DNA of 396 nt, taken from Escherichia coli (GTDB lineage: Bacteria; Pseudomonadota; Gammaproteobacteria; Enterobacterales; Enterobacteriaceae). The DNA lies in NCBI RefSeq assembly GCF_003334355.1, contig NZ_QOWP01000109.1. One strand, given 5' to 3'. The translations under genes and the position numbers were made by a program. Shown one piece after another: positions 96-350 of the stretch. The notes below the pieces were generated by a model. It did not search any database and was not told the origin of the DNA. It was given only the letters and a program-made list of their open reading frames with translations. Numbering within the stretch: position 1 is the first letter of the stretch; every line of letters starts with the position of its first letter.

Positions 96-248
96 CTACT
101 TCTTCGGTTCGTAAGCGAGAACAGCCTTAAACTCAATATTACGTTCCTTCACCGTAAACTCACACAGCGAGTCTCCGACCAGAAGCGTAAATCCCAGCAC
201 CGTTAAACACAGCACTATGACTGCCGCAAGGGCATATTTCGTCAGCAT
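96..248 (-). CDS. hokE: Hok/Gef family type I toxin, a small membrane-depolarising peptide, 50 aa: [50 protein letters not shown]
   Basis: Minus-strand ATG at 248..246 and TAG stop at 98..96 (complement of plus cta). The translation has the Hok family hallmarks: a hydrophobic transmembrane N-terminal half, the conserved SLCE motif and a C-terminal ...AYE... tail. It is near-identical to the E. coli HokE sequence as I recall it. GGAGG lies 10 nt upstream. The IS186 end 21 bp downstream matches the known K-12 hokE arrangement. This is the C-terminal 50 codons of the 95-aa track ORF. Confidence 0.9.
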
Positions 249-288
249 GTTTATATTGCCTCCATGCGAAGAAGGGACTACCATCCAA
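160..288 (-). CDS. Putative mok-like (modulator of killing) overlapping reading frame; start codon unresolved. The frame is open from 345 to the TGA at 162..160; TTG at 288..286 is the hok-proximal candidate start.
   Basis: This minus-strand frame puts a CAT codon at 249..247, one nucleotide 5' of the hokE ATG. That is the same register as mok relative to hok in plasmid R1 as I recall it (GGC CAU G). It stays open for 62 codons and terminates inside hokE, as mok does. No ATG or GTG is present in frame and no Shine-Dalgarno precedes either TTG, so whether it is translated here is uncertain. Confidence 0.25.
256..284 (+). promoter_or_regulatory. Candidate sigma70 promoter for the Sok antisense RNA: -35 TTGCCT (256..261), 17-bp spacer, -10 TACCAT (279..284)
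   Basis: Seen directly on the plus strand. The -35 matches TTGACA at 4 of 6 positions and the -10 matches TATAAT at 4 of 6, including positions 1, 2 and 6, with optimal 17-bp spacing. The -35 overlaps the complement of the hokE Shine-Dalgarno (cctcc 259..263), the arrangement expected for a sok promoter. Confidence 0.35.
259..263 (-). promoter_or_regulatory. Shine-Dalgarno sequence (GGAGG) for hokE
   Basis: Minus-strand GGAGG at 263..259, followed by a 10-nt spacer (CAATATAAAC) and the hokE ATG at 248. The spacing is at the long end of the functional range, in keeping with Hok translation being inefficient and regulated. Confidence 0.6.
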
Positions 289-291
289 ATT

Positions 292-350
292 GTTCGGGTT
301 TGGAGTGGCAGCCCCAGGGTGTACTGACCCCAAAAAGTTGGACAGTTAAA
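292..350 (+). ncRNA. sokE: Sok-type antisense RNA (antitoxin of the hok/sok type I system), antisense to the hokE mRNA leader; boundaries approximate.
   Basis: In hok/sok systems a roughly 60-nt antisense RNA is transcribed opposite the hok leader from a promoter overlapping the hok translation initiation region. A sigma70-like promoter on the plus strand (-35 TTGCCT 256..261, 17-bp spacer, -10 TACCAT 279..284) predicts a start near 291..293. This agrees with my recollection of the annotated E. coli K-12 sokE position relative to hokE. No canonical stem plus U-tract terminator is visible at the 3' end, so the 3' boundary is the least certain part. Confidence 0.4.

Follow-up and report, generated by a model that had tools for sequence, protein, structure and literature searches.

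[quoted passage not shown] With intact hokE they have in common a leader architecture comprising tac, ucb, an SD/dcb hairpin and fbi, as well as a cis-antisense RNA, Sok, whose promoter overlaps the hok Shine-Dalgarno (SD) sequence and dcb and whose 5' tail targets the hairpin loop. R1, hokB and hokC carry a GAGG-N7/8-AUG arrangement 57-58 nt before hok, whereas in hokE no start codon follows the homologue of the mok SD, which reads GGGG instead of GAGG with a compensated dcb. In R1, the SD GAGG is located at about 105-108, the mok ATG at 116-118 and the hok ATG at 174-176, and mutations of the mok start codon abolish toxicity (PMC9841398). Of the mok genes annotated in K-12, mokA is a pseudogene that IS150 has cut, mokB begins 58 nt upstream of hok and out of frame with it, and mokC begins 57 nt upstream and in frame; a mokE is not among them. 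A full-text literature search, which did not cover the primary hokE paper (Pedersen & Gerdes 1999), returned neither a description of mokE nor ribosome-profiling evidence on hokE. In this context, a 2026 preprint calls the identification of Mok "not trivial" (10.1101/2025.08.07.668861).

The window, i.e. the whole 396-nt stretch of E. coli DNA that was analysed, had been noted in a preliminary description for a minus-strand frame in the mok register that overlaps hokE, and one of the explanations offered was that the mok start had decayed in this copy. From our point of view, the window very probably represents the hokE/sokE allele that is also found in the E. coli strains B and C and in numerous wild isolates, which is cut by IS150 and IS186 and in which the open frame is composite, the absence of a mok start is common to Escherichia and the hairpin of the leader has been kept. 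It is an annotated, widespread, IS-disrupted hokE allele whose biology is essentially known; the apparent puzzle is mostly a product of transposon sequence and the case is largely ordinary.

Results

A hokE/sokE locus cut on both flanks

The minus strand of the window carries the chromosomal type I toxin-antitoxin locus hokE/sokE of E. coli, which is interrupted by an insertion sequence on either flank. Megablast against 5,426 complete E. coli genomes divides it into three parts, namely positions 1 to about 76, which match IS186/IS421 copies everywhere, positions 74 to 320, which are the hokE locus, and positions 320 to 396, which match IS150 copies. The assignment to hokE given in the preliminary description holds, as the list of open reading frames and RefSeq (WP_000956455.1) both place the hokE coding sequence (50 amino acids plus stop) at 248..96 on the minus strand. 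It encodes a small hydrophobic membrane toxin of the Hok/Gef family that is 72-98% identical to 21 orthologues. The SD sequence GGAGG at 263..259, 10 nt from the AUG, and an ATG at 284..282 in the hokE frame are likewise present as they had been reported. On the other side of the toxin gene, the IS186/IS421 end (1..76, minus strand) is delimited by genomes without the element, which align only from position 74, and by the RefSeq annotation of an IS4-like IS421 transposase, the start codon of which lies at 19..17.

In strain 300709, which matches the window over its full length, RefSeq annotates the order IS421 transposase, hokE, IS150 transposase and ybdK, with both transposases and hokE on the same strand. 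Uninterrupted alleles such as that of AMA1167 show the order entD, hokE and ybdK, and K-12-type alleles carry IS186 as the sole insertion at hokE. Accordingly, hokE of K-12 MG1655 (b4415, with sokE b4835 and IS186B) has the same coding sequence, the same native leader (319..249) and the same IS186 insertion as the window but differs in its uninterrupted leader and complete sokE, to which the window adds IS150 at mRNA position +76. IS186 is inserted about 20 nt past the hokE stop codon in a GC-rich hairpin (the K-12 annotation places IS186B 19 nt after hokE) and separates hokE from the 3' fbi element; in the intact allele, the fbi motif AGGCACC follows the stop codon at a distance of about 55 nt.

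On the upstream side, the IS150 right end occupies 320..396 on the minus strand, as identified by megablast, RefSeq and a junction probe. All hallmarks of this element are present: the terminal inverted repeat TGTACTG..., with the terminal TGTACTGACCCC at 320-331 on the plus strand, a 3-bp target duplication, and a transposase coding sequence (RefSeq IS150 transposase, IS3 family) which ends at 346 and has the same orientation as hokE. The target site reads ATCAACCCTGGGG in the intact allele, the junction in the window reads CAGTACA|CCC|TGGGG and the far junction ATCAACCC|TGTACTG. In longer reads, these are ...TATCAACCCTGGGGCTGCC... for the intact allele, ...GGTCAGTACA|CCC|TGGGGCTGCC for the window and ...TATCAACCC|TGTACTGCACCC... 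for the far side. CCC (317..319 in the window) stands at both junctions and represents the 3-bp target-site duplication. The insertion point, +76 of the hokE mRNA, is located four bases upstream of the homologue of the mok SD and 72 nt upstream of the hokE ATG.

A 47-nt probe spanning this junction was found in 446 of the 5,426 complete genomes, including REL606, BL21(DE3), C41/C43 and E. coli C. From the REL606/BL21-type junction allele of these 446 genomes the window differs only at position 88, where it has A; all 40 best-matching genomes have C there, and so do the intact and the K-12-type alleles. This base belongs to the GC hairpin just past the hokE stop, and the minus strand reads GTTCGGGG there compared to GTGCGGGG. 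The native leader of the window is identical to that of the intact and K-12 alleles, with differences confined to 80-171. A comparable event is known from K-12 hokA/mokA, where IS150 has also inserted into a hok leader upstream of an intact toxin gene and disconnected promoter and leader elements; the distance to the toxin ATG is, however, 32 nt for hokA compared to 72 nt for hokE, and the remnant of mokA is annotated whereas a mokE is not.

The open frame is a composite

The preliminary description had reported a minus-strand frame from 345 to 160 that runs for 62 codons without a stop, ends inside hokE (248..96), has neither ATG nor GTG and is not entered by any start preceded by an SD. We find the same in each of these respects; the only native candidate in the frame, TTG at 288, has an SD duplex energy of +0.1. 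What changes is the origin of the frame. The stop codon that bounds it upstream, TAA at 348..346, is the stop codon of the IS150 transposase, and the native hokE leader within the window is confined to 319..249. The frame is thus a composite of 26 nt of IS150 that follow the transposase stop (345..320), the 71 nt of the 3' hokE leader (319..249) and an out-of-frame overlap with hokE (248..160). Three candidate starts had been listed, TTG at 333, TTG at 288 and CTG at 345, and all are present; since 345..320 is IS150 sequence, however, those at 333 and 345 are irrelevant to mok.

That the frame is open does not argue for coding. Based on composition, an open run of 62 codons in one specified frame has a probability of about 0.03; in 40% of shuffles of the window such a run occurs in some frame of the same strand, and in most relatives outside Escherichia, including Citrobacter and Klebsiella, the same register is closed at most 25 nt upstream of the hok ATG. 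In the intact allele a GTG at mRNA +3 extends the frame to 77 codons, and it was rejected as a start because its position at the extreme 5' end leaves no room for an SD. The lack of ATG and GTG in the frame follows from the lack of a start codon at the mok site of Escherichia hokE, which is considered next.

The mok start site in hokE-type loci

Full hok mRNA leaders were recognised with the Rfam model RF01794 at its gathering score of 59 bits. Although the model is named "sok", its hits in four loci (L002, L004, L006 and L007) lie on the hok-sense strand and extend from +1 of the mRNA up to the hok AUG, so that it does not describe the antisense RNA but is a model of the hok leader. Intact hokE scores 84.4 bits over the full length, compared to 118 for hokC, 110 for hokB and 87 for an R1-like plasmid locus. 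The window stays below the gathering score with 24.4 bits: its match is cut at the IS150 junction, and the part aligned upstream of 320 is a chance match to IS150.

In the same alignment columns, GAGG-N7/8-AUG is present in hokC (GAGGCCUCCUAUAUG), hokB (GAGGCCAACGAAUG), the R1-like locus (GAGGCAUCCCAUAUG) and the hokE-like loci of Klebsiella (GAGGCUGACGGAUG). The canonical GAGG-N7-ATG start aligns to 315..301 of the window on the minus strand, with the SD homologue at 315..312 and the start homologue, here UCCA, at 304..301, the latter with an ambiguity of one base. Escherichia has GGGG-N8-CCA (GGGG...UCCA) at this site; all sampled Escherichia alleles read GGGGCUGCCACUCCAAACC, as E. coli hokE does, or GGGGCUACCUACCCAAACC, and none has a start codon. 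In the window, the homologous triplet is UCC or CCA and no AUG, GUG or UUG occurs within 12 nt downstream of GGGG. No mok open reading frame was found in the window either, the only native start-like codons being UUG 288, AUG 284 and AUG 265 with duplex energies of +0.1, +0.1 and -2.8, compared to -5.6 to -5.9 for the SD duplexes of canonical mok ATGs.

A survey with one genome per species yielded 21 hokE-type loci from Escherichia, Citrobacter, Klebsiella, Phytobacter, Pluralibacter and others. The canonical mok AUG is retained in four of them (K. pneumoniae, K. oxytoca, K. michiganensis and Pluralibacter) and is absent from the remaining 17 of the 21, including every Escherichia. The comparison within Escherichia covered E. 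coli, E. albertii, E. whittamii and two Escherichia sp. from the survey together with six further E. coli alleles across the range of identity. The alignment that had been proposed as a check thus does reveal a mok ATG at the homologous position elsewhere, namely in the Klebsiella and Pluralibacter hokE-like loci, hokB, hokC and R1-type loci. The suggestion that the start decayed in this particular copy, on the other hand, did not survive: the ATG is missing from all 13 Escherichia alleles examined (among them seven E. coli alleles and five further Escherichia genomes, one of E. coli and four of other species) and from most hokE-type loci of other genera, which marks the loss as old and lineage-wide rather than a lesion of the window copy. 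A point mutation in the window alone, with the start retained in other E. coli copies of hokE, would account for the frame without ATG or GTG, but the identity of the native leader to the intact and K-12 alleles and the lack of a start codon in every sampled Escherichia allele already refute it, and we regard it as extremely improbable.

In other lineages, the start site reads AUC, AUU, ACU or UAC and the frames downstream of it are not consistently open. Near-cognate starts at AUC or AUU (six loci outside Escherichia) were considered and rejected, as these frames are not consistently open up to the hok SD and Escherichia has ACU at the corresponding place. The hokE-like loci of Klebsiella and Pluralibacter (L017, L022, L023 and L025), whose Hok is 74-82% identical, share the leader architecture and the SD/dcb hairpin with hokE but differ in that they keep GAGG-N7-AUG and do not have the four extra nucleotides that precede the AUG of hok in Escherichia. 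The mok AUG of the three Klebsiella loci lies 51 nt upstream and in frame with hok, and in Pluralibacter (L022) a 1-nt deletion makes the mok frame stop about 19 nt before the hok AUG.

These loci also bear on the earlier statement that the open frame of the window is in the correct register. It does have the register of R1 and hokB, with the mok-start homologue 55-56 nt before the hokE ATG compared to 58 nt there, but the register is not a constant of the family: the mok start of R1 and hokB is out of frame with hok at a distance of 58 nt, and in-frame starts lie 57 nt upstream in hokC and the R1-like plasmid locus and 51 nt upstream in Klebsiella. The R1-like locus is that of the IncFII plasmid pMTY1886 (L004, 344..403), where the mok ATG is 57 nt upstream and in frame with hok; the difference from the 58 nt of R1 is accounted for by a 1-nt indel in the first mok codons.

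The SD/dcb hairpin and sokE

In minimum-free-energy folds, the intact leader forms a hairpin at mRNA positions 81-122, corresponding to 315..274 on the minus strand of the window, in which GGGGCU pairs with AGUCCC as in the SD/dcb stem of the R1 model. The 5' tail of SokE can base-pair with the complementary loop CCCGAACAA (298..290), i.e. the hairpin is the Sok target, and GGGG (315..312) takes the place of the GAGG that forms the mok SD elsewhere in the family. Across 22 leaders, the SD/dcb helix is 86% paired with seven pairs changed on both sides, a value reached by none of 500 shuffles. The pair between the second SD position and dcb is A-U in 14 sequences and G-C in the seven sequences with GGGG, which indicates that the change from GAGG to GGGG occurred together with that of the dcb partner. 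This covariation argues that the hairpin holding the mok-SD homologue has been kept by compensatory substitutions despite the missing start codon. GGGG is the same change as the loss-of-function mutation A106G of R1 (PMC9841398), and a reading as simple inactivation was considered; it was rejected since the dcb partner has co-changed and the competing stem is strengthened too, GGGG adding a pair to ucb.

The antisense gene is only partly present. K-12 sokE (b4835, 607733..607792) maps to 292..351, and the homologous sequence of the window, promoter plus the first 28 nt, covers 256..319 on the plus strand; the remaining 32 nt lie beyond IS150 (left junction in L001). According to the b4835 coordinates, the sequence, the fold and the junction, the 28 nt at 292..319 comprise the single-stranded 5' tail and the left arm of the terminator hairpin; IS150 has displaced the U-tail and the opposite arm of this hairpin. 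The putative sokE promoter (256..284, plus strand) consists of a -35 element TTGCCT (256-261), a 17-nt spacer and a -10 element TACCAT (279-284). The -35 element is the complement of the hokE SD region, the -10 element that of mRNA AUGGUA and therefore of ATG 284. A consensus scan for promoters and terminators with a threshold of 9 out of 12 positions found nothing in the window or in the intact locus; as the promoter homologue matches 8 of 12 positions and thus falls below this threshold, it was assigned from the coordinates of K-12 sokE and by homology. In relatives, the -10 element reads TAACAT or TACTAT, and TAnnAT is always kept.

Which start could drive hokE

A short non-canonical leader frame inside the window might couple hokE translation. 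It could begin either at the AUG at 284..282, which would give an in-frame extension of 12 codons, or at the AUG at 265..263, whose mini-frame (MEAI) ends 2 nt short of the hokE AUG. Of 21 hokE-type loci, 19 have AUG 284, which opens, in Klebsiella and Citrobacter, a 12-codon frame ending at the UGA of AUGCUGA, which overlaps the hok start. However, it has no SD (duplex energy of at least -0.2), is base-paired in the SD/dcb stem, and its conservation follows the -10 box: TAnnAT is kept while the G of AUG has turned to A in two lineages. Since ATG 284..282 is the complement of the last three -10 bases, we attribute its conservation to the constraint on the sokE promoter. AUG 265, in turn, has weak SD complementarity (-2.8 compared to -5.6 to -5.9 for canonical starts) and overlaps the hokE SD itself. 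Coupling by either of these codons has, from our point of view, only a slight chance of being correct.

A different possibility would be that the mok start of Escherichia moved upstream to an ATG at mRNA +49 (GAGG-N9-AUG) and that IS150, beyond which this ATG lies in the window copy, severed it from its frame. The +49 ATG has the best SD of the leader (-6.3), occurs in all Escherichia genomes and in no other genus, and its frame crosses the hokE initiation region in four of seven E. coli alleles, three of them in the register of 345..160. That frame is not conserved, however: K-12 and AMA1167 have it in the hokE frame and L031, L034 and L036 in the mok register, a stop codon at -32 or -48 closes it in L032, L033 (O157) and L035 (strain 536), and it also ends early in two further Escherichia genomes (L009 and L011). 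Furthermore, both the SD and the AUG are located inside the 5' tac hairpin. We therefore consider a relocated start improbable, though less so than a coupling by the short leader frames.

The most plausible route in intact alleles would be initiation of hokE from its own GGAGG. The SD motif GGAGGCAA is invariant in 21 of 21 hokE-type loci, and HokE is, judged by dN/dS values of 0.10-0.26 in comparisons with orthologues from other genera, some of which have no mok AUG, under purifying selection. Two points speak against direct initiation. Firstly, the motif is at the same time the -35 region of sokE on the other strand, which explains its invariance equally well. Secondly, the R1 hok SD is non-functional without mok translation (PMC9841398); by analogy, a hokE without mok should be untranslated, yet its peptide is under purifying selection. 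Escherichia further differs in a 4-nt UAUA insertion between the hokE SD and the AUG (249..258 in the window), which gives a spacing of 10 nt compared to 6-7 nt in other genera. The same insertion introduces a stop codon, UAA, which closes the third frame 2 nt ahead of the hokE AUG.

In the allele history that we favour, HokE would probably be initiated directly from GGAGG in intact alleles, and the hairpin would survive as the SokE target and as an element of the mRNA switch instead of a mok initiation region, with SokE presumably acting through duplex formation and RNase III cleavage. A more far-reaching version is that control is mok-independent as such, with the orphan SD hairpin serving either as a ribosome standby or loading site or purely as a target of Sok and RNase III while hok is initiated from its own SD. 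What the mok-less hokE-type loci retain is an element resembling an SD together with its partners ucb and dcb, which show compensatory changes, as well as the loop targeted by Sok and a Hok peptide on which purifying selection acts. We hold this version to be unlikely, if somewhat less so than a start relocated to +49; if true, it would be a variant of the R1 paradigm that resembles the standby mechanism of tisB/istR-1.

Consequences of the insertions for expression

IS150 cuts hokE off from its LexA-box promoter, tac and ucb and takes the 3' half of sokE. The window retains the SD/dcb hairpin, the hokE SD and coding sequence, and the putative sokE promoter followed by 28 nt of sokE. The two elements for end-pairing of the full-length mRNA, 5' tac and 3' fbi, are missing from it: tac (GGGUGCCU...) is found on the far side of IS150 and fbi (AGGCACC) on that of IS186, and the intact allele L002 has the two of them. 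In the window allele, hokE would hence be separated from its promoter, tac, ucb and fbi, and sokE would have lost its terminator.

The LexA box of the intact allele, CTGTATAAATAAACAG, is perfect and located upstream of +1 (L002, 1868..1853, minus strand), at a distance of about 31-46 nt. The same sequence is present at L005 1243-1258; the box is kept in Escherichia, and some loci of Citrobacter and Klebsiella have similar TAAATATACAG motifs. In the allele with IS150, the LexA box and hokE are 1.4 kb apart. hokE has been listed as a LexA-box gene (PMC2826370, PMC11228462), and in a 2024 study AZT did not induce hokE in K-12 (PMC11228462).

Because the transposase has the same orientation as hokE, read-through from IS150 is the only obvious source of hokE mRNA in the window allele. 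Most likely, hokE of this allele is either silent or expressed solely by such read-through. In a modelled read-through transcript, UGCCUC of IS150 (354..359 in the window) is predicted to pair with the hokE SD GGAGGCA (257..263, minus strand). The model has a minimum free energy of -41 kcal/mol and a z-score of -2.85; it is weak evidence, and the pairing may be a chance anti-SD.

Significance and further observations

For the window itself, these results have little significance, and the comparison is a by-product of modest value. Only one point is mildly novel, namely that most hokE-type loci have no mok but retain the toxin as well as the RNA switch. With a register that varies and a start codon that is missing in most hokE-type loci, mok is no constant of the hok family, which bears on the annotation of chromosomal hok loci and on how far the coupling model of R1 can be generalised.

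Three observations were made alongside. An 89-residue "hypothetical protein" (WP_009008364.1 and WP_071592639.1, annotated by PGAP) runs antisense to the hokE leader and start in L031, L034 and L036 (64..333) and also on the plus strand of L002 (1581..1853), and many genomes, among them those of K-12 type, have it flagged as frameshifted; it resembles an artefact of annotation in a region of structured RNA. A 2.3-kb contig of Marinobacter sp. B9-2 (L030) carries at its end a 19-residue fragment 95% identical to HokE, a probable enterobacterial contamination. Lastly, Klebsiella spallanzanii (L019) has two tandem hok leaders about 520 bp apart (1060..1212 and 1579..1734), which score 92.8 and 91.1 bits with RF01794.
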